From the IMG/VR virus record IMGVR_UViG_2541047965_000007, positions 1-48,732 of that record: a stretch of DNA of 48,732 nucleotides, one strand, 5' to 3'. A model generated the notes under the pieces. The model searched no databases, had not been told where the DNA came from, and saw nothing but the letters and a program-made list of their open reading frames with translations. The stretch's first letter is position 1. The number at the start of each line of letters is the position of its first letter. Positions 697 through 39,412 of the stretch are shown here, in pieces. This DNA comes from a virus (Duplodnaviria > Heunggongvirae > Uroviricota > Caudoviricetes). A program made the translations under genes and the position numbers.

Positions 697-1059
697 GGGG
701 CTGATTCTGGATTCGACGGGATTTGCGAAACCCAAGGTGCATGCCGAGGGGCGGTTGGCCTCGTAAAAAGCCGCAAAAAATAGTCGCAAACGACGAAAAC
801 TACGCTTTAGCAGCTTAATAACCTGCTTAGAGCCCTCTCTCCCTAGCCTCCGCTCTTAGGACGGGGATCAAGAGAGGTCAAACCCAAAAGAGATCGCGTG
901 GAAGCCCTGCCTGGGGTTGAAGCGTTAAAACTTAATCAGGCTAGTTTGTTAGTGGCGTGTCCGTCCGCAGCTGGCAAGCGAATGTAAAGACTGACTAAGC
1001 ATGTAGTACCGAGGATGTAGGAATTTCGGACGCGGGTTCAACTCCCGCCAGCTCCACCA
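697..1059 (+). ncRNA. ssrA: tmRNA (SsrA), about 363 nt, with internal tag reading frame ANDENYALAA-stop at 786..818
   Basis: Starts GGGGCTGATTCTGGATTCGACGGG and ends tRNA-like GGTTCAACTCCCGCCAGCTCCACCA; tag peptide frame gcaaacgacgaaaactacgctttagcagcttaa read directly. Confidence 0.95.
1015..1059. repeat. att core copy 1 (45 bp, the 3' end of intact ssrA)
   Basis: atgtaggaatttcggacgcgggttcaactcccgccagctccacca is repeated exactly at 34600..34644. Confidence 0.85.
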
Positions 1060-1182
1060 AATAAATCAAGGGGTTACGTGAAAGCGTGGCCCCTTTTTCT
1101 TTGGTAGTGGCGGCAAAATGGCGACAGACTTTTGCGTCCATCTTGCCTGTCGCCATCTTGAAATCATGCAAAGAGGTTTCAC

Positions 1183-1665
1183 ATGGAAGAACTTCACTTT
1201 GTTTACATCAATGCAAATGGTCGTATCGGTGTTCACTCTATACAGAGCATCAGTTATAGCGAAAATCATATACAGGGCATTTGTAAGAACACCGATCGAA
1301 TAAAAACCTTCCGAAAAGACCGCATTCTTAAACAGTACGATTCACCAGAACAAGCCATTCAGGAGTGCGCGTCATTCCTCCCCGAAAACTACTCACATCT
1401 CACCAAGCAGTCTGGTCCGAAAAAAAATACATTCGATGTATGTTTCACCGGATTTAAGAAAGCAGATAAAGAAAGATTGGTTGATAAGGCGAATGAACAA
1501 GGATTAACGGTAAGAACCTCTGTAACCCAAAGCCTTCAGATGCTCTGTTGCGGTTACAATGCAGGCCCATCAAAAGTATCGGCAGCCCGGATGAAAGGCA
1601 CAATCATCATAGATGAGCCTGGCTTTATACATTTTCTTGAAACGGGTGAGATCCCAGATGAATAA
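1183..1665 (+). CDS. hypothetical small protein; C-terminal BRCT-like region, N-terminal R-x-F-R-x-D-R-I motif reminiscent of WYL domains; prophage-end cargo
   Basis: 160-aa ORF with SD aaagagg 7 nt upstream; AT-richer than neighbours; lies between the att core and ogr where P2 has no gene. Domain assignment is by eye only. Confidence 0.5.
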   Translation: MEELHFVYINANGRIGVHSIQSISYSENHIQGICKNTDRIKTFRKDRILKQYDSPEQAIQECASFLPENYSHLTKQSGPKKNTFDVCFTGFKKADKERLVDKANEQGLTVRTSVTQSLQMLCCGYNAGPSKVSAARMKGTIIIDEPGFIHFLETGEIPDE

Positions 1666-1978: not shown

Positions 1979-3079
1979 TTATTCCATTTCAAGATCATCA
2001 ATCTTCACTTCGAGTTCAATACTGGTTGTAAAACCGTTATCCGGGCTGACGGTATGTGTCAGAGTCGTAATGGTCCATTCCGCATCATCTATCGGCTGTT
2101 TAAAACCACTGACCTTCACAGGCATTTCCGTGTAGAGATCTGCCCGCCCTTCCGCCAGTTGTAGCGAGAATGACGCAACGCCACGTTGCAGGCGTTCCCA
2201 CTGCATTTTCGCTGCCCGTTCAGCGTTGCTCCGGTTGGCATAAGTGCGATTAAGTACCAGCACGTTTTCATCCGTCCCCACCAGGTAATCGCCCTGCTTC
2301 GCTTCCGGCTCTTTCTTCTGCTTCTTAGTCCTGCGCTTACGCTTCACCGTAGTGCTTTCTTTCTTCGCGGGTTCGCGGGTATGCAACCAGCTGGCAAGTA
2401 CCCCCGTGTAAGCTCCGCGATCTGCCAGGGTAAAGCGGTGACTGTCGCCGTCCTTACGTGTGATAGTAATCACCGGCAGTGGTTTACCGCTGGCGCTTTT
2501 GCCCTGTCCCTGCCGGATGAATAACAGATTGCCATTTTTCACCGATGCAATGGCACCGTACTGGCGCGCCAGCCGCATCAAAAAACTGCCGTCACTCTCA
2601 TTAGTCTGGTCTATATGCTCCACGGGCTTATCCGACAGGTCTTTACCCAGTGCCATCTTCAGCTTGTGCCGCGCGGCTATTTCCTTCACCACTTCCCCGA
2701 TGGTGGTGTTATGCCACGATTTTTCACGGCGGGTATTCAGCGTTTCCCGAAAATCAGCACTTCGCGCCCGGATAGTCAGGCGGTCCGGTGCGCCAGTGTG
2801 TTCAATCTCGTCCACCGTGAATGCCCCTTTCGGGAAAAGCGGCTGCCCCTTCCAGCCCAGCGCCAGCGTAATGACCGCACCACGGCGCGGCAGCACGATT
2901 TTTCCGTCGGCGTCGTCCAGCTCCAGATCAAGCTGGTCCGCTTCAAAGCCCCGGTTATCCGTCAGCGTAAGCCCCATCAGGCGTTTGTCCAGCACAGTGG
3001 TGATATCCTTCCCCTCAATACTGATGCTGAATGCGGGAGTTTTGTTGCCTTTGTTAAGCAGTTCAGAGCTGAAATTCAC
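1979..3079 (-). CDS. D: tail protein gpD
   Basis: 366-aa ORF; size and position (ogr-D-U-T) match P2. Confidence 0.85.
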   Translation of the reverse strand: MNFSSELLNKGNKTPAFSISIEGKDITTVLDKRLMGLTLTDNRGFEADQLDLELDDADGKIVLPRRGAVITLALGWKGQPLFPKGAFTVDEIEHTGAPDRLTIRARSADFRETLNTRREKSWHNTTIGEVVKEIAARHKLKMALGKDLSDKPVEHIDQTNESDGSFLMRLARQYGAIASVKNGNLLFIRQGQGKSASGKPLPVITITRKDGDSHRFTLADRGAYTGVLASWLHTREPAKKESTTVKRKRRTKKQKKEPEAKQGDYLVGTDENVLVLNRTYANRSNAERAAKMQWERLQRGVASFSLQLAEGRADLYTEMPVKVSGFKQPIDDAEWTITTLTHTVSPDNGFTTSIELEVKIDDLEME

Positions 3080-23758: not shown

Positions 23759-24607
23759 TTAAACACCGGCACCAATGAAACCGCCATATGAATCTTCTTC
23801 AAGGCTGATGTATTCTACCCTCCATTGATCCATCCGCCTCAATGCATACAGGGAGAAATGAGTATCAGCAACAGCTATGCACGTATTCAATTCTATAAGT
23901 TCTGAATGCCCCAAGGTTGGATCACCATAAAACTTATAAAACAAAGCCTTTAGATCAGAACATGTTTGTTCAGCCGCTCTTCTGGCATCGGGGCCACCTT
24001 CAGTTGCATCATAAACAACATTGATAGAAAGCTCATATGGTATGCCTTCCTCAAGATCGTTAAATCTTTCTTCGCCCAAATCGAAAAAAACTCCGATCAA
24101 ATGCTCTGCGTTTGTGGCGATAATATCCGCAACTTCTTTTTCGAAAATAAACTTTTTATCCTCGTCGTAAGCCCGCAAGCGCTCTTCAAACGAGTTAGGA
24201 AACGCTGGACGACCATACTTAGCAGCTAACCATTGCTTAAGAGCTTGTTTCTCTTCTGTGCTAATGGAGAATGCTGGATCGTTTTCCTCACAACAGAAAG
24301 CTTCTTTAGGAATGATGACTTTCCTTTCATGCCGGAGCTCTACTGCATTCTTCTTCGCACTTTCTGGGTTTTCAAAACATAGATCGAGTATTCTCGGATG
24401 CTTAGCTCTTTTCATCCTGCTTGACCCCTTTTTCAAGGGGCCAAACATCAGTTCCACGTTTTTTTCTGAATTACTCTGTAAATCACAATCATGCGTTATA
24501 ACTACAACTTTATGGTTCGTTTCATCAGGCTGCAGAATTCCAAGTGAAACGGCATCATCATGTTTAAGTACATGCCCCTGACGCCATGATGTTCCTCGTA
24601 CCAACAT
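23759..24607 (-). CDS. hypothetical cargo protein (282 aa), no domain recognised
   Basis: Last gene of a three-gene minus-strand module between Q and cos; AT-richer than the phage core. Confidence 0.6.
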   Translation of the reverse strand: MLVRGTSWRQGHVLKHDDAVSLGILQPDETNHKVVVITHDCDLQSNSEKNVELMFGPLKKGSSRMKRAKHPRILDLCFENPESAKKNAVELRHERKVIIPKEAFCCEENDPAFSISTEEKQALKQWLAAKYGRPAFPNSFEERLRAYDEDKKFIFEKEVADIIATNAEHLIGVFFDLGEERFNDLEEGIPYELSINVVYDATEGGPDARRAAEQTCSDLKALFYKFYGDPTLGHSELIELNTCIAVADTHFSLYALRRMDQWRVEYISLEEDSYGGFIGAGV

Positions 24608-24616
24608 AAATGTGAT

Positions 24617-25279
24617 TTATTCCTCTACCGTTCCAGGAATTGAAATAGATGACTTCCAATCATCTGTCGGTTTCGCCTTGCTTGCTAAGTAATTGGCCGA
24701 TTCAGCAGCAGCATTCATCGCTTTAGCTTCATCAATCAATACCTGAACTGCCCTATTCCAATCCTCACCTTCTTTTACTACGTCCATTAATGACTTACCA
24801 TTAAATGCTTTCATTTTCACCAATAGCTTCGCATCATGGAGTCCAGCTTTGGAAAAAGAGTCAGCGACATTACTAAGGTTGGTAATGAATTGCACTTTTG
24901 AAGCATCATCAGGCTGGTTCTCCCCTGACAACCATTTATAGAGAGCCTGCCGAGTTATCCCCAAATCCTTTGCCAGTTCTGACATTGATGGAGACAGCAC
25001 TTCTCGAATATTAGCTAAATGTTGGGCAACATTCCTGACATCAACCTCAGGAGAAATTGCAGGCGTGTACGTTGATTCTATGGAATCAAATGCAAACTGA
25101 ACCCTTGGCTGAACATACTGACGCCATTGCTTATAAGCATTTACAGGGTATGAAGCCCCCGTACCAACTAATAGTAAAGATGCGGCGACAGCAACAACAC
25201 CTGATACACATGAGCTTGACTGCAAATTTGGAGAATATCGATCTACAGAGCCTATGCTTCCGGTGGGAATTGCATACAT
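24617..25279 (-). CDS. hypothetical protein with N-terminal hydrophobic segment and XRE-type helix-turn-helix (start at internal Met)
   Basis: SD ggaggtga 8 nt upstream of ATG at 25279; hydrophobic VSGVVAVAASLLLVGTG; HTH-like MSELAKDLGITRQALYKWLSG. Confidence 0.6.
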   Translation of the reverse strand: MYAIPTGSIGSVDRYSPNLQSSSCVSGVVAVAASLLLVGTGASYPVNAYKQWRQYVQPRVQFAFDSIESTYTPAISPEVDVRNVAQHLANIREVLSPSMSELAKDLGITRQALYKWLSGENQPDDASKVQFITNLSNVADSFSKAGLHDAKLLVKMKAFNGKSLMDVVKEGEDWNRAVQVLIDEAKAMNAAAESANYLASKAKPTDDWKSSISIPGTVEE

Positions 25280-25298
25280 TTTAGTCACCTCCGTTGTT

Positions 25299-26108
25299 TC
25301 AGTGCCATTTAGTACGGGCAAAATCTGAAACCATGCCTTCAAATGCTTCTTTAACTTTACTATGCAACGAAAGAATCTGTTTTTCAATTAACTGCAAATC
25401 AGTTGACATGTTGCCTTCAACATAATGATCTGTATCAATTATTGCGTGCATACGATGCTCTGTGTTACTAAATCTCGGCAACGGCAGTAAACCATTAGGA
25501 ATCATATCTGGCGGAAAACCTAGCTGACCATTCATCTTATGTATTCGTGAAACCATAAATCCATTAGGGATCAATGGCTCAACACATGTCTGATATACGG
25601 ACTCTTGTATAGACTGTATTGGCGTCCATCCGAAATCAACACCATGAAGTTCCTTTACAAGATACTGCTCAATTGTTTCGCTTTTCTCAGGAAACACAGC
25701 ATCCAAATATCGAAGCCCAATCCGACTTAACAGCGATGGCTTAGCAAATTCTAGAACTTTGCTCAGACCAAGTATCAATGACGAGATGAAAGATACATGG
25801 TTATCATAATATGTTGTATGGAACGTAATGAAATCGTTGCCTAAAACAAAACCAGATCTTCTATCTGCATCAATCATCAACCAACTTGTCACAGGCTCAA
25901 ATGAATGTACCGGTGGCTCATTGGGGTTTTTTATTTCAAATTTCAACTGAGTTGTATTGGAAACCTCAAATAAAGGAAATCCCTCAACTCTTAGCGCATC
26001 TTGTATGTCTGGAACATACTTACTCATTGCAGCTATTGGAGTAAACTTTACCTGTACCAATGCATAGTAAACGGGCGCATTGGACATACGTTCGCTGTTA
26101 GTACTCAT
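25299..26108 (-). CDS. hypothetical cargo protein (269 aa)
   Basis: First gene of the module; N-terminus MSNAPVYYALVQVKF reminds me of a conserved-hypothetical family seen in defence islands, but this is unverified. Confidence 0.6.
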   Translation of the reverse strand: MSTNSERMSNAPVYYALVQVKFTPIAAMSKYVPDIQDALRVEGFPLFEVSNTTQLKFEIKNPNEPPVHSFEPVTSWLMIDADRRSGFVLGNDFITFHTTYYDNHVSFISSLILGLSKVLEFAKPSLLSRIGLRYLDAVFPEKSETIEQYLVKELHGVDFGWTPIQSIQESVYQTCVEPLIPNGFMVSRIHKMNGQLGFPPDMIPNGLLPLPRFSNTEHRMHAIIDTDHYVEGNMSTDLQLIEKQILSLHSKVKEAFEGMVSDFARTKWH

Positions 26109-26471: not shown

Positions 26472-26705
26472 TTAATGCAGCCAGCTGTCGTCTTCCCACA
26501 CCTTCTGCATAATTTTCATCACTTGTTTTCTTTCTTCGTCCAGTTGCAGTCCGGTTAGTTCCACACCGTTAGAGCTACCTTTGCGAATGCGAATTACCGT
26601 TTTGGGATACAGGGGGCGCAGATTGCGGTAAAGCTCGGATTCAAGGGCGTCCAGGGTAGACTGGCTAATCTTCTGCTCTTTATCGATCATTATTTCAATG
26701 CGCAT
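26472..26705 (-). CDS. DinI-family protein (77 aa, start at MRIEIMIDK)
   Basis: Sequence pattern of DinI (MRIE..., ...WEDDSW); SD gaggtga 5 nt upstream of ATG at 26705. Confidence 0.8.
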   Translation of the reverse strand: MRIEIMIDKEQKISQSTLDALESELYRNLRPLYPKTVIRIRKGSSNGVELTGLQLDEERKQVMKIMQKVWEDDSWLH

Positions 26706-26715
26706 AAAAGTCACC

Positions 26716-26904
26716 TCAGCTGATGACATCCATTGAGCGGTTGTATTCGTGGGTTCTGATTTTTGCCATGAGTTCATCAGTCAATTCAGAAACCCACTGC
26801 AGAGCCAGCCCCTTCTCTTCATCACTACACTCACTAGCCGCTACAAGCTTAAGAAAAAAATCAATGCGCTGGAGCTTCAAAGACTCCAAAAAATAGTCCT
26901 GCAT
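26716..26904 (-). CDS. small SOS-controlled protein (62 aa) at the position of 186 tum
   Basis: SD taggagg upstream of ATG at 26904, about 45 bp downstream of a consensus LexA box. Confidence 0.55.
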   Translation of the reverse strand: MQDYFLESLKLQRIDFFLKLVAASECSDEEKGLALQWVSELTDELMAKIRTHEYNRSMDVIS

Positions 26905-27057: not shown

Positions 27058-29472
27058 TTAATACAGGTTCCGCCACTGATCATCTTCCTGCAAACGCTGG
27101 TTCCGATAGAAGATACGCAGGCCTGCTCCTGACGGAATACTGCCTCCGCGAAGGAGTAAATCGACCTCTTTCTCGCTGCCATCAAATCCTCTGGACTTCA
27201 GCTCATACACGAGCTGCAGTCGCTGATGGTCTGTAATTCGCTGTTTGTAGTCTTTACGCCGTTTCGGTTTCACCAGGCGTAACCTTGCTGCCAGTTCCCG
27301 GCGCTCTTTTTTGCTCATACTGTGCAGGTAATCGTGCAACTCCTTGTCATCCATGCTGGTAATGTCCGTTCTGGGGTCCCCATCAGCTGATTTATCTTTC
27401 TCCTGTTGGTTCAAATTTTCAGCAAGGGGACAGTTATTGCCACGAGTCCAAGGGGCGCAAGCGCCCTGGTCGGCTGCCGCCTCCTGAACGTCAACGGCCT
27501 TACGAACCATTTTCCACTTCACTGCATGAGTGCAGATCTTGCCCTCTGCAATGGGTGACCAGATGCCATAAATACGAATACCGTGATCGCCATAGGCGGT
27601 TGGCTCTTCGTTTATTTCATAAGCGGTTCTGATGAGGTGATATTTGCGGGGAACCAGTACGCCGCCCTGCTTCATGATGTAGGTGGCAAAACAACCAGCA
27701 TCAGCAGCAGCCAGGATGGCATCAAGGCGCGGGTTATCCAGTACCGGCGCACCTGCTTTTTTGTCACCCTGTTGCCTTGCCGCCTGACCAGCCAGCAATC
27801 GCAGTTCACGGTAAGCCTGACGCCCCGGAATGCCAAAGAAGCGGAATTGCTGAACACGATGCAGAGACGCCCAGGCATTAACGTATTCAGCGTTATCACG
27901 CAGGGATTTACCCGTTTCCTTACTGATCTCGCCAGCCAGACCACGCCCGTCAATATTCTTACTGATATATTTCGCAATGTAGCTTGTCGGCGTTCCTTTG
28001 CGCGGGTTTATCAGCTCAGACTTAAAGCGTGGCCCCGTGTTATTGCCCAGCTCCTCGCGGTCTTCACGGATGGCAAACTTACGCAACAATGCAGTAATGG
28101 CGCGGCGGTCTTTTTTGCGCATGAAACACAACAGGTGCCAGTGAACTGTGCCGTCATGATGCGGCTCAGCCACCCGCACGCCATACCAGCGCAACCCGGC
28201 TTTGTGCATAGCCTTACGAAATGCAGCAAACATGCCGACCAGATAATCGCTGCTTTGTCTTACTGTCGCGTTGGTCCAGGTCGGGTTTGGCCTGCCGTTA
28301 TTTAGCGTGGAATGGAAACGTGACGGACAGGTGATGGTGTAGAAAACGGCGCAGTCACCACGCATTTCCGCAATAAGCTCCAGGCCTTTAACACAGGCCA
28401 TCATCTCGTTGCGGCGATGCGCCGGGTTGCTGCTGCTGGCGTTTACCACATCCTCCATGTTCAGCGTGTCGCCGTCTTCGTTCACCAGTTCATGAGAACG
28501 GAAAAACTCCAGCGACTTACGGCGCTGCTCACGTTTATGCATCACGGCTTCATAGCTGACATAGGGAGATGCTTTTTTGCTGACCAGGCAGACAGCACGC
28601 AACTGCTCTTCCCGCCATTCGCAACGCATCTTCCATAATTTCCGATACCACCAGTCGGCGCACAGCATACGCGCCAGCGAACCCGGAATGAGTTCATAAG
28701 GCACAGGTTTGCGGCGGTTTCTTTTCCGGCGGAGTTGCTCAAACGCAGGCGGTATGACATCCAGTCGCAGGGTTTCTGCAGCCACCTTTTCCCATGTCTT
28801 GCGGATTTCTTCTGGCTTAACATCATCGGAGGCGTACAAATCACCACAAGCGGCATCAAGACACATGCTCATATGCGCAGCGACAAGGGTAGACAGGCGT
28901 TTCACCTGATCCTGACTCATTTCAGGCAGGATCAGCAGACCGTCCAGCCCTTCATGGCTTGCCATAAAACGAAAAGATGCAGATAGCTGGCTGTCGCGTA
29001 CATGCTCCAGTCGTTCCAGACATGGCTTAATCGTCTCACGTAAATAGCGGGAATAAGCCTTTGGCCTGCCCAGGCTACTGAAATATTCAATACGTTGCAT
29101 CAGCGGCTTGCTGATATGGGAAGGCTGGGCGTTGACGTCAGCCAGAATGACCATGACTGGATTAAAACGCTGCTGCTCATGCGCCATCTTTGCCCGGCTA
29201 ATGAGCTTATCCTGCTCCATTTTACGTTGGACAGGATCACGGGATTCATTAAAGAAATAACGCTCCCAGACCTGATCACTCAGTGCCTCGCGGCGCAGTT
29301 GTTCCTGCTCGTTATCGGTAGCGTACAGAGTGATCAGGTTTGAAAGCGCAGAAACCGGCGCAACTTCCGCCGGGTCCAGATAAGGGTTAATGGCCTTTTT
29401 CGGGCTGTTCCATGAGAATGCTGCGGCGACCTCGTTAAAGCCGCTGCAGTTGTTCATATCAGCATGGCTCAT
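27058..29472 (-). CDS. A: rolling-circle replication initiator gpA
   Basis: 804-aa ORF with HUH-like [11 protein letters not shown] and catalytic-Tyr region YIAKYISK; P2 gpA position. Confidence 0.9.
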
Positions 29473-32822: not shown

Positions 32823-33455
32823 ATGATACAAGTAAAAGCTGGCGAGAATACAGGGGGAAGAGAGGCTATCCATAGACTAATGGCAGCCTATGATTTCAAG
32901 TCCAGACAGCAACTTTGCGATCACTTAGGCGCATCAAAAAGCACTATGGCAAACAGATACTTAAGAGATAGCTTTCCCGCAGAGTGGGTGATTCAGTGCG
33001 CCTTGGAAACAGGAGTTTCTTTACTGTGGCTAACCACCGGACAAGGCGAGCCAGGTTCAAACATTGACCCTAAAAAAAATATCAATTCTGTGAACTTCAG
33101 CAGGGTTAAACCTCTTTCTGAGCTTGTATCTCCTGAAATTGACAAGGCAACTCTCAACGGTGGTTTATTGGTCGATGCTGGAAAAGCAATCATTGATAGC
33201 AGCATACTCCCCTCAGACTCAAGCAACCTGCTGCTGGTGAGTACTTCTGGTGATTCTTATTTAATAGATCGCAACCAAACACCACCAGTAAATGGTACGT
33301 GGTTAGTGGACATCGACGGGATAAAGAGCATTGTAAAATTGACACGACTCCCGGGAAACAGATTAGTAGTGCATCAGGATGATTCATCGTTTGAGTGCGA
33401 ACTGGATGATATTGAGGTAATAGGTCGCGCACTGAAAATCATTAAGAGCCTTTGA
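32823..33455 (+). CDS. cI: CI immunity repressor (possible true start at Met20, 32880)
   Basis: N-terminal HTH, C-terminal domain; located between the switch and int as in 186. Confidence 0.75.
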   Translation: MIQVKAGENTGGREAIHRLMAAYDFKSRQQLCDHLGASKSTMANRYLRDSFPAEWVIQCALETGVSLLWLTTGQGEPGSNIDPKKNINSVNFSRVKPLSELVSPEIDKATLNGGLLVDAGKAIIDSSILPSDSSNLLLVSTSGDSYLIDRNQTPPVNGTWLVDIDGIKSIVKLTRLPGNRLVVHQDDSSFECELDDIEVIGRALKIIKSL

Positions 33456-33456
33456 T

Positions 33457-34482
33457 ATGACCATCAGAAAACAGCCGAACGGAAAGTGGTTATGTGAATG
33501 CTACCCAAACGGGAGAGATGGCAAACGCGTACGCAAACAATTTGCGACGAAAGGCGAAGCCATTGCGTTTGAGAATTTCACCATGGATGAGGTAAACAAG
33601 AAACCTTGGCTGGGAGAAAAGGAAGATCGGCGACAACTGTCAGAAGTGATTGAGCAATGGTATTCCCTGTACGGTCAGACACTCGCTGACCCTAAGCGAT
33701 TAATGGCTAAGTTAAAAATCATTTGTAATGGACTTGGCGATCCCATCGCTTCTGAATTGACAGCAGGTGATTTCACAAAGTACCGGGAAGCCAGATTAAA
33801 AGGTGAGGTCAAAAACGAAGATGGCGTGCTCATGTCACCGGTTAAGCCCAGAACGGTGAACCTTGAACAGCGTAACCTATCCTCAGTTTTTGGCACACTG
33901 AAAAAGCTGGGACATTGGTCTGCACCCAACCCCCTCGCCGGTCTGCCAACTTTCAAAATTGCAGAAGGTGAACTGGCGTTCCTTGCTGCTGATGAAATCA
34001 AACGCCTGCTTGACGCATGTGCTGAATCTCAAAGTCCCAGTCTGCTAATGATTGCCAAGATTTGCCTGGCTACCGGGGCAAGATGGAGCGAAGCCGAAAA
34101 CCTGCAAGGTAATCAGATATCAAAGTATCGAATTACCTATACCAAAACAAAAGGAAAGAAAAACCGAACGGTTCCTATTTCTCAGGAACTGTATGAAGAA
34201 TTACCCAAAAACAGAGGAAAGTTATTCACACCATGCCGAAAGGCTTTTGAGCGTGCGGTAAAACGGGCTGGAATTGAACTACCTGAAGGTCAATGTACCC
34301 ACGTTCTGCGCCACACTTTCGCCAGCCACTTTATGATGAACGGCGGAAACATTTTGGTATTGAGGGATATTTTAGGACACGCTGATATTAAAATGACCAT
34401 GATTTATGCCCATTTTGCACCGGATCATCTGGAAGATGCCGTTACCAAAAATCCACTTCATAACCTCAACTGGCATCGCTAA
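33457..34482 (+). CDS. int: tyrosine integrase (P2/186 type)
   Basis: 341-aa ORF with C-terminal HxxR...Y catalytic region (VLRHTFASHF ... MIYAHF); adjacent to att core. Confidence 0.9.
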   Translation: MTIRKQPNGKWLCECYPNGRDGKRVRKQFATKGEAIAFENFTMDEVNKKPWLGEKEDRRQLSEVIEQWYSLYGQTLADPKRLMAKLKIICNGLGDPIASELTAGDFTKYREARLKGEVKNEDGVLMSPVKPRTVNLEQRNLSSVFGTLKKLGHWSAPNPLAGLPTFKIAEGELAFLAADEIKRLLDACAESQSPSLLMIAKICLATGARWSEAENLQGNQISKYRITYTKTKGKKNRTVPISQELYEELPKNRGKLFTPCRKAFERAVKRAGIELPEGQCTHVLRHTFASHFMMNGGNILVLRDILGHADIKMTMIYAHFAPDHLEDAVTKNPLHNLNWHR

Positions 34483-34599: not shown

Positions 34600-34644
34600 A
34601 TGTAGGAATTTCGGACGCGGGTTCAACTCCCGCCAGCTCCACCA
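34600..34644. repeat. att core copy 2 (45-bp duplicate of the ssrA 3' end)
   Basis: Exact copy of 1015..1059; junction between prophage and satellite. Confidence 0.85.
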
Positions 34645-34828: not shown

Positions 34829-36037
34829 GTGGCAAGAACGACACGCCCCCTGACCAACACAGAAGTTCTGCGCGCTAAAGCGTTAGAAAAGGATCTAACG
34901 TTGCATGATGGCGATGGTCTTTTTCTGCTCGTTAAAACGAACGGTAAGAAGTTATGGCGTTTCCGTTATCAACGTCCAGCAACAAAACAGCGAACAATGA
35001 TGGGGCTAGGTGCCTTCCCCACCCTTTCACTTGCTGACGCCCGACGGTTAAGAGCGAATTACCTTTCCTTGTTAGCCAACGGAATTGACCCGCAAATTCA
35101 AGCTGAAATTGCAGTGGAACAGCAGCAAATCGCACTGGACAGTATTTTTTCAACCGTCGCCGCTAACTGGTTCCAGCTTAAAAGCAAAAGCGTTACCCCT
35201 GATTACGCGAAAGACATTTGGCGTTCACTAGAAAAAGATGTATTCCCTGCCATCGGTGAGATCCCAGTTCAGCAAATCAAAGCCCGAATGCTTGTTGAAG
35301 CCCTAGAGCCTATCAAAGCACGTGGGGCACTAGAGACGGTACGTCGTCTGGTGCAGCGTATTAATGAGATAATGATTTACGCCGTAAACACAGGTCTGAT
35401 TGATACCAATCCAGCATCAGGTATTGGGATGGCCTTTGAGAAACCTAAAAAGCAAAACATGCCGACGCTCCGGCCAGAAGAATTACCGAAGCTGATGCGT
35501 TCTTTGATTATGTCTAATCTGTCTGTTCCGACACGTTGTCTTATTGAGTGGCAACTACTGACCCTTGTACGCCCTTCTGAAGCCTCTGGTACTCGGTGGG
35601 CAGAGATCAATCTCGATGCAAAGCTCTGGACGATTCCAGCCGAACGGATGAAGGCCAAACGTGAGCACATTGTTCCTCTATCTCCTCAGGCATTAGAAAT
35701 TCTGGAAGTGATGAAACCAATCAGTGCTCATCGTGAACATGTTTTTCCGAGCAGAAATGACCCAAAGCAAGCAATGAATAGCCAGACTGCAAATGCTGCT
35801 TTAAAGAGAATTGGATATGGTGGTAAATTAGTAGCTCATGGTTTACGGGCAATTGCTAGTACATGTATGAATGAAGCAGAATTTAATCCTGATGTGATTG
35901 AAGCTGCATTAGCTCATATTGAAAGTAATGATGTTAGAAAAGCCTATAACCGCTCAACCTATCTAGAGCATCGAAAAGAATTGATGAACTGGTGGGGTAT
36001 GCATTGCACTTCTGCAAAAAATGGGATTGTTAGATAG
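34829..36037 (+). CDS. intA: P4-type tyrosine integrase (GTG start)
   Basis: 402-aa ORF recognised as P4/CP4-57-type integrase; SD aaggag 7 nt upstream of GTG. Confidence 0.9.
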   Translation: MARTTRPLTNTEVLRAKALEKDLTLHDGDGLFLLVKTNGKKLWRFRYQRPATKQRTMMGLGAFPTLSLADARRLRANYLSLLANGIDPQIQAEIAVEQQQIALDSIFSTVAANWFQLKSKSVTPDYAKDIWRSLEKDVFPAIGEIPVQQIKARMLVEALEPIKARGALETVRRLVQRINEIMIYAVNTGLIDTNPASGIGMAFEKPKKQNMPTLRPEELPKLMRSLIMSNLSVPTRCLIEWQLLTLVRPSEASGTRWAEINLDAKLWTIPAERMKAKREHIVPLSPQALEILEVMKPISAHREHVFPSRNDPKQAMNSQTANAALKRIGYGGKLVAHGLRAIASTCMNEAEFNPDVIEAALAHIESNDVRKAYNRSTYLEHRKELMNWWGMHCTSAKNGIVR

Positions 36038-36078
36038 CAGCATCTTTTTGACTCAATTCTACATAAATGGAGTAATAA

Positions 36079-36441
36079 ATGGATCTTAGTTTCTTTAAGA
36101 GCAGCTTGAAATACAATGCAACAGCAACGATTTTCTGTGTTTTTGCATTATATTTATCAATGCCTATTTTCGAAAATGTTAATTTCATATCGAGCCATCC
36201 AATTATCGTCTCAGTACTATTTACTTTACTTGTAAATTCTTTACTTTTAATAATTTACTGGACATCCCATACAAAAAAAACAAATTCAAAGTCGGGTGTA
36301 AAAGGAAACAAAATAATCGGAAACAAGGCAAAAAACATTAACATACTTTCCAATGGAGAAATAACTAAAAACATCGTCAGTAATAATGATAGTAATGGTG
36401 ACATTAATATTGGGCAGGTCTTCAAAAATGGAAAAAAATGA
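36079..36441 (+). CDS. small membrane protein with two TM helices and Asn/Lys-rich repeats; probably the N-terminal part of a frameshifted gene
   Basis: SD ggag upstream; hydrophobic ATATIFCVFALYLSMPIF and IIVSVLFTLLVNSLLLIIYW; ends at TGA right after an A7 tract. Confidence 0.55.
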   Translation: MDLSFFKSSLKYNATATIFCVFALYLSMPIFENVNFISSHPIIVSVLFTLLVNSLLLIIYWTSHTKKTNSKSGVKGNKIIGNKAKNINILSNGEITKNIVSNNDSNGDINIGQVFKNGKK

Positions 36442-37009
36442 AAGCCTAGTCATTTCTGATAATGAAATAACTAATAATAATCCTGGGAGAGATCTGAACA
36501 TTGGGACACACATAAGTTTCAATGAGGTTAAGAATCGGAGCAATGCATTAGCAAATTTATTAGAACGTTCTAAAAAACTTTGTGAAACAGATCAAGAATA
36601 TAAATACATGCTCGAAGAGTTACAAGAGTATCTTCAGCCCCGTCCAGGTCGAAAAATCATAGGGTTAGAAGGAAAACTAAAAGAAGGCAATCGACTTGAT
36701 TTGTTAGAAGATGCAGCTTATTTAGAAAATAAGTTTGCAAGACGAGTTAGCAAGCATCAGTTTTCCATATCAGAAGAAATCATTTACTGTCATTGCTTAA
36801 GTAAAATAAACTCATCTTTTTCACAATATGTCAAACCACTGTTTAAAAACACAGTAAACACTGCTATAATTGACAGAGTCATTTATGACAGAATAGTTGA
36901 ACCTCTTTATGAAGAAGTGTCTGAAGTTAGTACCGCTATTTCTAGCGAATTAATTAGAGGCATGATTTTCTTCTTAACGGGTAAATGTCACTTACGGTGG
37001 GTTGGTTAA
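36428..37009 (+). CDS. hypothetical helical protein; probably the C-terminal part of the same frameshifted gene
   Basis: Begins with a repeat (SDNEITNNN...DLNIG) homologous to the end of the upstream ORF but in the +1 frame; stop overlaps next start (TAATG). Confidence 0.55.
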   Translation: MEKNESLVISDNEITNNNPGRDLNIGTHISFNEVKNRSNALANLLERSKKLCETDQEYKYMLEELQEYLQPRPGRKIIGLEGKLKEGNRLDLLEDAAYLENKFARRVSKHQFSISEEIIYCHCLSKINSSFSQYVKPLFKNTVNTAIIDRVIYDRIVEPLYEEVSEVSTAISSELIRGMIFFLTGKCHLRWVG

Positions 37010-37500
37010 TGATTATTTATCATCCATTTAAAGATGCAAACCATTGCTCATATCGTATTATAAGCTTGCTATATAAAAACAATAACAAGATTAGGGATGA
37101 GCACCTTAATTTTATGGATTTCTATTACCTTTTCCCTTGTCAAATAAAGAACATTGATGGATGGCCGCGTTCAAATTCGAAACTTGCACGCCGAATTTCT
37201 ACTATAGAGGACACTTATGAAACAATTGAAAATCCTCGTAGAATTTTCTTTGAATTAAATATAATACGTAGAAACACCTTAGCACATTTATTTTCGAAGG
37301 GCATTCTATCCTTGATAGATGAATATATCCACCTGAATATTGAAAGAATACCAACATCCCTGATTAATACGCTTGAAGCTGACACCTTTAGAGCCACCTT
37401 CGAATTTACTACCATTGCTAACGAAATACCCAAACTAGCAATCAAAGGTAAAAAAGGCCTTAAAGCAAAAACTAATTTAATGGAATATCGTTATGATTAA
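37009..37500 (+). CDS. hypothetical small protein (163 aa), middle component of the cargo operon
   Basis: Translationally coupled on both sides (TAATG at 37007..37011; ATGATTAA at 37493..37500). Confidence 0.6.
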   Translation: MIIYHPFKDANHCSYRIISLLYKNNNKIRDEHLNFMDFYYLFPCQIKNIDGWPRSNSKLARRISTIEDTYETIENPRRIFFELNIIRRNTLAHLFSKGILSLIDEYIHLNIERIPTSLINTLEADTFRATFEFTTIANEIPKLAIKGKKGLKAKTNLMEYRYD

Positions 37501-39412
37501 AAAACCGTCATATCTCAAGTTAAATAGATTAGTCATAACTAAGGCTGGTAAACAGTTATATGACGAAAAATTTCACGATGGTATAAACATAATCAGAGGG
37601 GAGCACTCTGTAGGAAAATCAACAATTTTAGATATGATTTTTTATATTTTAGGCGGAGAATTAAAAAAAGACGACTGGAAATATCCAGCCGATAAATGCT
37701 CGAATGTTAATGCAGAGATTACAATTAATGACCGCATTATTACCTTAACCAGGCCAGTGGATCCTAGTGGCGCAGCTCCTCATATTAAAATCTATGAAGG
37801 AGAGTATGATAAGGCAATGAAAGATGCAGATGGCTGGCTAGACTATGGCTCAAGGAGAAGCAATGAGCGATTAAGCTTCTCAGAAATGATGTTTGAACTT
37901 TTCGATTGGGGACAATATAAATCTGACAGCCATCAAAATTTAACCATGCATCAAATAATGCGACTCATTTATTTAAGTCAATCATCAGATTCTAACAGAA
38001 TATTTCGCAAAGAGTCTACTCGCTCTGACAATGAAAATACCAGGACAGCTATCGCTGAGTTTCTTTTCGGTCTCGATGATTTGGAAACTCACTCAGTTCG
38101 TCAAAATTTATTGAAGTATGAGAGAGATTATGAAAATACCGGAACAGAATTAAGAGCATATTTCGAGCTTTTAGGAAATGACTCTAATCTAACTGTTGAT
38201 ATAATTAACGAATTATTGAATGAAAAATACACTGAACTATCCAAAATAGACTCAAAGAAAGAAATTTTATTGCGTTCAACAGATAATATTGATGGTAACA
38301 ATGAATATAACCTAGCTATCGAACGCAATGACATCCTTTTAAAAATACAATCACTAACAAACAAAATATCACTTAAAAACAATGAGTTACATTCAATAAA
38401 GACCGAAATCCAGGACTGTTTGCTTTTTGGAAAAAATTTAGCATATCGTTTAAAATCTTTGAATGAATCACAAGAAACATATAAAGGCTTAGGTCGAATT
38501 TCTTTTGAATACTGCCCTTGTTGCTTAACACCAATATCAGAACACGATAACACTGATAGTGGTTGCGCACTTTGCAAATCAACAGTCAACAATTCCTCAT
38601 TAGAGGAAAAATATATTGAATCACTGAACGAACTGCAATATCAACAGCGTCAAAATAATAAAATTATAGAAAAACTATATAGTTCAGCAGAATATATAGA
38701 GGGCTATATTAAAGAGCTTCAAAAAGAGCTTGAAAGCTTACACAATAGATTGTTTGAAATCAATTTAGTCTCAAATTATCGAGAATTGGCTATAACTTCA
38801 ATCGTAGAAGAAAGAACTGCAAAATTAATTGAAATCAACTCCCTGCAAGATAAAATTGATTCAATAGCTAAAGTTGACGACTTAAAATCAAAACGTGAAG
38901 ACATCGCAAAGCAAATGGAAAAATTTCGTTCACGAATAACCGCTCTTGAAGCAAAAAACAAGCGCAGAAAAGAATATGTTTACTCAAAACTATCTGAATT
39001 TTCCACTTTTATTCTTGAAGGAGACTCGGGGAATGAAGAGCTATTTAAAACAGCAACTCAACTTTCCTCAGAGATTGACTTTGCAAAAGATCGCTGGCTT
39101 TTGAATGAACGGGTAAATTACTCAGATAGTTCAAACGTTGTCAAAAAAGCAGCTCTACATTTAGCATTTCTTATTTTTTCAATCGTTGATTCAGCTTGCC
39201 GATATCCTCGTTTTTCCATTATGGACTTCGAATGCGGGGATATAAATGAAGCTCGAAGCCATAACCTTCAAAAATTAATCACTACAAGCCTTAGTAACTT
39301 TAAAGGTTTTCAGCTTATTATGACTACATCTAAAATTGATTCATCTTTGAACAACAACACTTACGGGGTTGGTCGTTATTATGACAAAAATGACTACATT
39401 TTGAAGATTTGA
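37493..39412 (+). CDS. Rad50/SbcC/SMC-like ABC ATPase with coiled coil and Cys4 cluster
   Basis: Walker A GEHSVGKST at 37598..37624 in an SMC-head-like N-terminus; long Glu/Lys/Leu-rich middle; CPCC-x16-CALC at 38513..38575; C-terminal FSIMDFE Walker-B-like motif. Confidence 0.75.
   Translation: MIKKPSYLKLNRLVITKAGKQLYDEKFHDGINIIRGEHSVGKSTILDMIFYILGGELKKDDWKYPADKCSNVNAEITINDRIITLTRPVDPSGAAPHIKIYEGEYDKAMKDADGWLDYGSRRSNERLSFSEMMFELFDWGQYKSDSHQNLTMHQIMRLIYLSQSSDSNRIFRKESTRSDNENTRTAIAEFLFGLDDLETHSVRQNLLKYERDYENTGTELRAYFELLGNDSNLTVDIINELLNEKYTELSKIDSKKEILLRSTDNIDGNNEYNLAIERNDILLKIQSLTNKISLKNNELHSIKTEIQDCLLFGKNLAYRLKSLNESQETYKGLGRISFEYCPCCLTPISEHDNTDSGCALCKSTVNNSSLEEKYIESLNELQYQQRQNNKIIEKLYSSAEYIEGYIKELQKELESLHNRLFEINLVSNYRELAITSIVEERTAKLIEINSLQDKIDSIAKVDDLKSKREDIAKQMEKFRSRITALEAKNKRRKEYVYSKLSEFSTFILEGDSGNEELFKTATQLSSEIDFAKDRWLLNERVNYSDSSNVVKKAALHLAFLIFSIVDSACRYPRFSIMDFECGDINEARSHNLQKLITTSLSNFKGFQLIMTTSKIDSSLNNNTYGVGRYYDKNDYILKI

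Follow-up and report, generated by a model that had tools for sequence, protein, structure and literature searches.

What does a protein of 160 residues, encoded at the very edge of a prophage, do for its phage or for the host? The question is raised by a gene at positions 1183–1665 (plus strand) of the virus record IMGVR_UViG_2541047965_000007 in IMG/VR (Caudoviricetes), whose 48,732 nucleotides constitute the window analyzed here. The gene lies at the attachment (att) site of an Escherichia coli prophage of the P2/186 type. Its product, hereafter the WYL-BRCT protein, is a nonenzymatic protein consisting of two domains, whose families bind single-stranded DNA (ssDNA) in the case of WYL and phosphate-bearing DNA ends in the case of the BRCT domains of LigA and RFC1. 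Unrelated temperate phages carry the gene on their lysogeny side as an optional cassette, with no fixed partner gene, and some forms of the product are membrane-tethered. We consider the structural assignment solid and the genomic association clear and, as far as we see, new. For the function, we propose with a probability of about 0.4 that the protein is an exclusion or defense factor expressed in lysogens, which binds DNA ends, nicks, or gaps.

Two domains without an enzyme

The structure of the protein was modeled with AlphaFold2 on an alignment of 57 sequences, and residue conservation was counted over the same 57. The full-length model has a predicted local distance difference test score (pLDDT) of 91.5 and a predicted template modeling score (pTM) of 0.52, the latter being expected because two domains are joined by a flexible linker. 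From the N terminus, five strands (residues 3–52) are followed by two short helices (residues 55–73), a weaker linker, and a β-α-β-β-α-β-α unit (residues 85–154). The mean pLDDT of residues 71–80 in the linker is 69, and the linker length differs among the homologues. On the plus strand, a WYL-type Sm-like barrel (residues 1–54) is encoded at 1183–1344, the two short helices and the low-confidence linker (residues 55–83, as delimited by the structure model and the alignment) at 1345–1431, and a single BRCT domain of the LigA/RFC1 type (residues 84–156) at 1432–1650. In the model, the two domains and their linker together take up all 160 residues, leaving no room for a catalytic or helix-turn-helix (HTH) domain.

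A BRCT-like C-terminal half had been suggested in a preliminary description made from the sequence alone, and every motif quoted there is found in the translation. The family profile and the modeled fold bear this assignment out. In a comparison of the profile with the PDB, the best matches were the BRCT domains of RFC1 (E = 3e-5) and Thermus LigA (4e-5), with E values ranging to 2e-4, and the model has the BRCT fold, with a four-stranded parallel sheet flanked by three helices. Against Pfam BRCT (PF00533), the protein itself scored 19.5 bits versus a gathering threshold of 21.3, which is exceeded by the homologues P0171 (30.3 bits), P0196 (31.0 bits), and P0155 (74.6 bits). Seven residues of the domain (Thr89, Gly90, Phe91, Leu99, Leu121, Gly124, and Lys131) are invariant, and position 96 (Lys96 here) is Lys or Arg in all 57 sequences. 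The phosphate pocket of BRCT domains is formed by a Ser/Thr-Gly pair after strand 1 and a Lys at the start of helix 2 (PMC10386641). Thr89, Gly90, and Lys131 occupy these positions; judged from its residues, the phosphate pocket is intact. In the profile alignments, the motif G-Y-N-A-G-P-x-K parallels GENPG-SK of LigA and GRDSGQSK of RFC1. The BRCT domains of LigA and RFC1 thus have the same β-α-β-β-α-β-α fold and the same T-G and G-x-N-A-G-P-x-K pocket motifs, whereas the domain described here is joined to a WYL barrel and not to an enzyme or AAA+ module. The isolated RFC1 BRCT domain binds DNA with a recessed 5′-phosphate with a Kd of about 10 nM, according to the value cited in PMC9293004.

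When modeled alone, the N-terminal part gave a pLDDT of 92.0 and a pTM of 0.77. It begins at residue 3 and forms a five-stranded Sm-like barrel, as in WYL domains. Pfam WYL (PF13280) did not match this protein even at E ≤ 10; the WYL-like character proposed earlier is substantiated by the homologues P0138 (28.5 bits), P0155 (25.1 bits), and P0196 (27.6 bits), which exceed the threshold of 21.8 bits, and P0097 has a precomputed PF13280 match. Tyr8 is invariant in the barrel. The motif that had been read as R-x-F-R-x-D-R-I does exist, but its first residue here is Lys (K41-T-F-R-K-D-R-I48), an Arg being present in 24 of the 57 sequences. Within the family motif, K/R41-T-F-R-K-D-R-I/V48, Thr42 is conserved in 57, Phe43 in 56, Arg44 in 52, and Arg47 in 50 of the sequences. 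The W-Y-L triad on the third strand is not kept: it is replaced by His29-Ile30-Gln31 here, and by His or Tyr, then Ile, Leu, or Phe, then Gln in the family. The WYL domains of CapW, DriD, and PafBC bind ssDNA (PMC11662680; structure titles), and the contacts of CapW include arginines flanking the triad, in the sequence RWHVR (PMC11662680). Compared with WYL regulators of the CapW type, the triad is H/Y-I/L-Q, and the flanking arginines that contact ssDNA are missing. Since the triad is altered and these arginines are missing, the ligand of the barrel is uncertain. CapW, BrxR, DriD, and PafBC all consist of a winged HTH (wHTH), a WYL, and a WCX domain. The WYL-BRCT protein has neither a wHTH nor a WCX domain and is, therefore, not a transcription factor of their type.

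A fusion of WYL and BRCT was listed in the 2014 census of WYL architectures (Makarova et al. 2014, PMC4012209), which contains the same two-domain combination with no phage context, structure, or function. The fusion itself has thus been known since 2014, and what is new is an accessory cassette of prophages in which the partner of the WYL sensor domain is a BRCT domain and not an HTH.

Family members with extra parts were examined by sorting the 150 best family representatives by length. There were 86 of up to 200 residues and 64 longer ones, 63 of which were read. Hydrophobic segments of the transmembrane type were present at the N terminus in 39 and at the C terminus in four of these 63 proteins, so that the predicted membrane-anchored forms account for about 29% of the 150 best representatives. 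In P2-like prophages of Pasteurellaceae, anchored variants are encoded directly after the repressor (L048 5536–6492, L052 5719–6519, L145 6001–6825, and L146 6001–7101); these variants, which include P0181 and P0155, have about one to three predicted transmembrane segments, and one has a second BRCT domain. At least 12 longer relatives carry an undescribed domain of about 150–200 residues before or after the WYL-BRCT module, with the motifs GW-F-V, F-x-EGD-VFY, LQV, and TQ-F-LL-TG, for which neither a Pfam match nor a sequence match in the PDB was found. The domain is present in P0121, P0124, P0129, P0130, P0159, P0172, P0183, P0186, P0171, P0196, P0229, P0242, and P0251, and the fusion is encoded at the loci L022 (5443–6489) and L024 (5242–6456).

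An optional cassette on the lysogeny side

The ORF (open reading frame) starts with ATG and has a good Shine–Dalgarno sequence, as had been noted: AAGAGG (1171–1176) stands 6 nucleotides before the ATG, in a leader at 1128–1182 (plus strand). Orthologues were taken from Yersinia phage MLG42 and from prophages of Erwinia, Klebsiella, Tatumella, Citrobacter, and Plesiomonas. The ratio of nonsynonymous to synonymous substitution rates was 0.05–0.15 among the enterobacterial pairs whose synonymous sites are unsaturated. The gene is real and under strong purifying selection, and it is not a chance ORF.

The window starts with the host gene smpB (1–483), followed by the host transfer-messenger RNA (tmRNA) gene ssrA at 697–1059 on the plus strand (ARAGORN; Rfam RF00023, 295.8 bits). 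The 3′ end of ssrA is the attachment site of the phage. A pattern search with exact extension located the left copy of a 45-bp repeat (attL) at 1015–1059 (plus strand), and an exact match to the last 45 nucleotides of ssrA is present at 34600–34644 on the same strand (attR). These repeats bracket a prophage of about 33.6 kb. Between attL and the gene are a phage-supplied intrinsic terminator (1068–1104, plus strand), found in a terminator scan with a 12-bp stem and a U-run, and the arm-type sites of the integrase, GTGGCGGCAAAATGGCGACAG, at 1105–1128. The latter are nearly invariant across eight sequences, with one G/A difference, and by our reading they appear to resemble YAYCGCCAYTY, the consensus given for the arm sites in the annotation of phage 186. 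On the other side of the gene is the core gene ogr/B, the late-gene activator, at 1692–1910 on the minus strand. A hairpin of −11.8 kcal/mol at 1667–1684, also found in the terminator scan, lies between the two convergent genes and is a terminator common to both. Farther along the left end are gpD (1979–3079, minus strand), gpU, and the tape-measure gene, followed by the terminase and portal genes in the interior, and gpA is at 27058–29472. The right end has cII, an apl-like gene, the immunity repressor gene cI of the P2/186 type (32823–33455, plus strand, from the ORF list), and the integrase gene int (33457–34482, plus strand). The cI product is named “phage repressor protein CI” by the Prokaryotic Genome Annotation Pipeline in a near-identical prophage, and it matches the repressors found upstream of homologues at other loci.

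The position of the ORF between the att core and ogr is as initially reported, and the same slot is indeed empty in P2, where a terminator and sites for integrase and IHF are all that separates ogr from the attP core. The ORF is also richer in AT than its neighbors, with a GC fraction of 0.43–0.45 against 0.53–0.59 in gpD, gpU, and gpT, although ogr is likewise AT-rich. The accessory, moron-type character that had been inferred is supported by this difference and by comparison with Fels-2, SopEPhi, and RE2010. These phages have the same ssrA attachment site, terminator, integrase arm sites, and ogr-D arrangement and lack the gene, which excludes a core gene of the lineage. In the alignment with Fels-2, identity extends through AAAATGGCGACAG (about 1128), and homology begins again beyond the stop codon at the hairpin, the counterpart of which is the post-ogr hairpin of Fels-2. 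Since the alignment breaks and resumes at these points, the insert is about 540 bp (about 1128–1665), consisting of the 55-nucleotide leader and the ORF. The leader is variable among the orthologues.

The terminator at 1068–1104 has a folding energy of −19.4 kcal/mol (z = −4.1) and is kept in eight phages and prophages that integrate at ssrA, with compensatory changes in the stem (G–C to A–T). In lysogens, it must terminate ssrA; in the circular phage, transcription of cI and int would stop there. Positions 1060–1200 were scanned for promoters, and neither a sigma-70 match nor TAnnnT nor an Ogr-type dyad (TGT-N12-ACA) was present. Given the terminator and the promoter scan, the gene in this layout would depend on an unrecognized promoter or on read-through, which would come from ssrA in the lysogen and, in the free phage, from cI-int. 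In the Rfam search of positions 500–2100, tmRNA was the sole match above the gathering threshold, so no riboswitch or small RNA is indicated in the leader.

The gene had been described as standing at the extreme end of the prophage. This holds in the lysogen as a result of the integration at ssrA, which moves the gene to the far end; in the circular phage, it is the last member of the lysogeny side formed by cI, int, and attP. When the prophage ends are joined, the order is cI, int, attP, and the WYL-BRCT gene on one strand, converging on ogr. Phages Cartapus and MLG42 have the same order, and according to the annotation of phage 186, its lysogenic operon (pL-cI-int-orf69) continues beyond attP and ends at a terminator there. 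In Vibrio PV94 and Mannheimia PHL101, the gene directly follows the repressor gene, with gaps of 27 and 4 bp, respectively, and where it directly follows cI, cotranscription with cI is the natural reading. A Xenorhabdus prophage has the gene directly after cI and before int. In Burkholderia phages, the WYL-BRCT gene shares its strand with a gene for a ribbon-helix-helix protein, and a hydrolase gene lies between them.

The gene was sought in other prophages, as the preliminary description had advised, and it recurs on the lysogeny side, after the repressor or in the slot between att and ogr. A scan with one genome per species yielded 49 loci. A CI-like gene lies upstream on the same strand in 14 loci; the gap is 7–115 bp, or the ORFs slightly overlap, in ten of them, and it is 384–613 bp in the other four. 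These 14 loci include prophages of Pseudomonas and Colwellia with lambda-type repressors (HTH+S24), which are unrelated to the P2/186 repressor. The att-gene-ogr-D layout was found in six of the 49 loci. A conserved partner gene downstream of the homologues was not found, and the cargo differs between the loci, including genes for a KAP NTPase, a DUF4209/DUF7380 protein, an AAA_21/AAA_15 ATPase, a bPH+SHOCT protein, and putAbiC. Individual homologues adjoin Mrr, MrcB-HNH, AbiGi, or HsdR genes. The neighboring cargo is varied and, from its domain assignments, often looks like defense genes. In other P2-like prophages, cargo that follows the WYL-BRCT gene in the cI–int interval (L035 7644–9164, L037 6468–7922, L040 6527–8314, and L061 6171–8087) encodes a KAP-family NTPase, a DUF7380/DUF4209 protein, or an AAA_21/AAA_15 ATPase. 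The other side of attP also carries cargo in relatives: the stretch between int and attP encodes a 401-residue “RES, NAD+-binding” protein in Cartapus (L001 2508–3713) and a 222-residue hypothetical protein in Escherichia coli 2012EL-2448 (L012 34424–35092). Both sides of attP serve as small cargo sites. In a 2026 survey of P2-like prophages, integrase-att and integrase-primase were minor defense hotspots; the WYL-BRCT gene is outside the two main hotspots (GpA-GpQ and the tail region) and adjoins the minor integrase-att hotspot (PMC13586616).

Among 5426 complete E. coli genomes, 171 have the gene between ssrA and ogr. A word index covering 5.8 billion proteins yielded 122 relatives, and when 1.84 billion cluster representatives were searched with the family profile, 208 matched at E < 1e-30 and 890 at E < 1e-10. 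Viral contigs were also scanned, and the matches were largely near-identical ends of E. coli prophages that contributed little. Fold matches in BFVD were H9EB15 (162 residues) of Vibrio phage SSP002 and A0A5Q2F6J3 (168 residues) of Serratia phage JS26. The family is widespread, with members in P2-like prophages as well as in prophages of Pseudomonas that have lambda-type repressors, and it includes soluble and membrane-tethered forms.

Proposed function and its alternatives

Here, we propose a mechanism for the WYL-BRCT protein as an exclusion or defense factor; the role in defense or anti-defense suggested in the preliminary description is still an inference. The protein would be made in lysogens and act alone as a binder of DNA structures. 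The WYL face would hold ssDNA, and the BRCT pocket would hold the 5′-phosphate at a nick, gap, or recessed end. On foreign DNA that is entering or replicating, the occupancy of such sites (annealed cos ends before ligation, for example) may hinder cos-end sealing, replication, or entry and thereby keep out rival phages or other mobile DNA. In the tethered relatives (about 29%), the module would be placed at the inner membrane, where foreign DNA enters. Prophage genes located after the repressor gene have often proved to have exclusion or defense functions, such as lambda rexAB and P22 sieA and sieB. These genes, as well as old, tin, and fun of P2, are prophage exclusion genes that are likewise AT-rich accessory genes in or beside the lysogeny operon, and the WYL-BRCT gene resembles them in being present or absent among close relatives. 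There is no relation in sequence or fold to these genes, and the exclusion role of the WYL-BRCT protein is predicted. With two domains whose relatives bind ssDNA and 5′-phosphate ends and with no output domain, the protein is a compact and testable candidate for nonenzymatic recognition of DNA ends or gaps in phage–phage competition.

Several observations weigh against an exclusion role. The net charge of the BRCT domain is roughly zero. The triad region of the barrel is H-I-Q-G and not RWHVR, so that two of the four residues contacting ssDNA in CapW, the flanking arginines, are absent. Expression in lysogens is assumed, as the gene stands behind a strong terminator and has no recognizable promoter. 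Around the 24 loci without phage markers, the enrichment of defense genes is weak, with five integrases, single matches to AbiTii, restriction-modification, and PycC-like proteins, and mostly housekeeping surroundings. Vibrio phage SSP002 is presumably virulent, which suggests that the family may extend beyond temperate phages. Finally, our full-text literature searches found no study of the WYL-BRCT protein beyond the listing of the fusion in 2014.

An alternative that we consider unlikely is that the protein senses ssDNA or damaged DNA and tunes induction or the establishment of lysogeny via the repressor and the lysis–lysogeny circuit. Because there is no DNA-binding HTH, such a modulator would have to act through protein contacts. 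The tight linkage to the repressor gene, with gaps of 7–21 bp in many phages, is in line with this role, as is the established function of WYL domains as ssDNA sensors in the DNA-damage responses of DriD, PafBC, and CapW. However, some of the upstream repressors are Phage_CI_repr proteins that lack a protease domain, and others are of the lambda type (HTH+S24); as these families are unrelated, a conserved physical repressor partner is unlikely. Some homologues are located away from any repressor, about 29% of the family representatives are membrane-anchored, and this prophage already has a DinI-like protein (26475–26777) that may be Tum-like.

We regard as rather improbable a helper function for the phage's own DNA at the establishment of lysogeny, in which the protein would be produced from the cI-int transcript of the circular phage and, prior to integration, shield or label nicks, gaps, or cos ends or bring in host LigA or repair factors. 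A BRCT domain of the ligase/RFC1 type, which engages nicked or 5′-phosphate DNA, would suit this function, and so would the location of the gene downstream of cI-int on the same strand, given the lysogenic transcript annotated across attP in phage 186. Against it, the gene is dispensable in Fels-2, SopEPhi, and RE2010, close relatives that use this att site; the gene precedes int, follows it, or is distant from it, depending on the phage; and membrane anchoring fits poorly.

A counter-defense decoy has little probability. It would soak up the ssDNA or DNA-end signals for CapW and the cyclic oligonucleotide-based antiphage signaling system (CBASS) or for BrxR and bacteriophage exclusion (BREX), or it would compete with the BRCT domain of LigA. 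The protein does have the sensor fold of CapW and BrxR without an output domain, and a fold-level relative is found in SSP002, but the gene sits in the lysogeny module and not among early lytic genes, and membrane-tethered variants exist.

The possibility that the public annotation is correct and that the protein is a DNA ligase or an exonuclease is practically nil, since the names in public records and the weak LigA and DEDDh-exonuclease matches in NCBIfam are countered by the confinement of these matches to the C-terminal BRCT domain and by the use of all residues for the two domains and their linker. The PHROG family phrog_2561 (2e-77) and the RefSeq entries for phages 500465-1 and PHL101 carry the name “DNA ligase,” and the entry of phage Cartapus is named “putative exonuclease protein”; the records with such names are NC_049342, NC_008201, NC_028898, NC_047750, and NC_070909. 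As an NAD+-dependent DNA ligase (TIGR00575), an enzyme with adenylation, OB, Zn-finger, and HhH domains, the protein scored 19.6 bits against a cutoff of 444 and matched positions 549–650 (BRCT) only, and as a DEDDh exonuclease (PRK06063), it scored 26.1 bits against a cutoff of 389 and matched positions 229–307 of 331 (BRCT) only. Neither the model nor the NCBIfam matches revealed an adenylation, OB, or DEDDh domain in the 160 residues. The two names should be replaced in PHROGs, RefSeq, and GenBank because they are based on BRCT similarity alone. Two further memberships were likewise rejected. With the PADLOC candidate PDC-S48, the protein shares the BRCT domain in its C-terminal approximately 70 residues (E = 1.8e-7; positions 335–406 of the 411-position model), and the remainder of PDC-S48 has no counterpart here. 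With SspE, only the C-terminal BRCT domain matches.

A broader form of the exclusion hypothesis is doubtful. The WYL-BRCT proteins may represent a class of stand-alone sensors that read ssDNA beside a 5′-phosphate and block the entry, circularization, or replication of foreign DNA without an enzyme. The anchored forms would then act at the site of DNA entry, and read-through from the host tmRNA gene could drive the gene in phages integrated at ssrA. If true, this would be the first immune or exclusion factor based on a BRCT domain in prokaryotes.

Other cargo in the window

Beyond attR, the window contains a second integrase gene of the P4 type (34829–36037), whose product has Arm-DNA-bind_3 and Phage_integrase domains. 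It is followed by a trio resembling ABC-3C/Lamassu systems, composed of a CTD9-domain protein (36386–37009), a middle component, MC5 (36985–37500), and an LmuB-like SMC (structural maintenance of chromosomes) ATPase (37493–39412). Together, the P4-type integrase and the Lamassu-like trio (34829–39412) constitute a defense island integrated in tandem with the prophage at ssrA.

The gap between the portal gene and gpA, a known cargo hotspot of P2, contains three genes at 23759–26108 on the minus strand. The products are 282 residues (no Pfam or PADLOC match), 256 residues (HTH_3), and 269 residues in length, the last being named “TIGR04255 family protein” in a near-identical prophage. These three genes could be an uncharacterized defense system. 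Just upstream of gpA, a DinI-domain protein is encoded at 26475–26777 on the minus strand (Pfam DinI, 80 bits). By analogy with phage 186, it may be a Tum-type antirepressor under SOS control.

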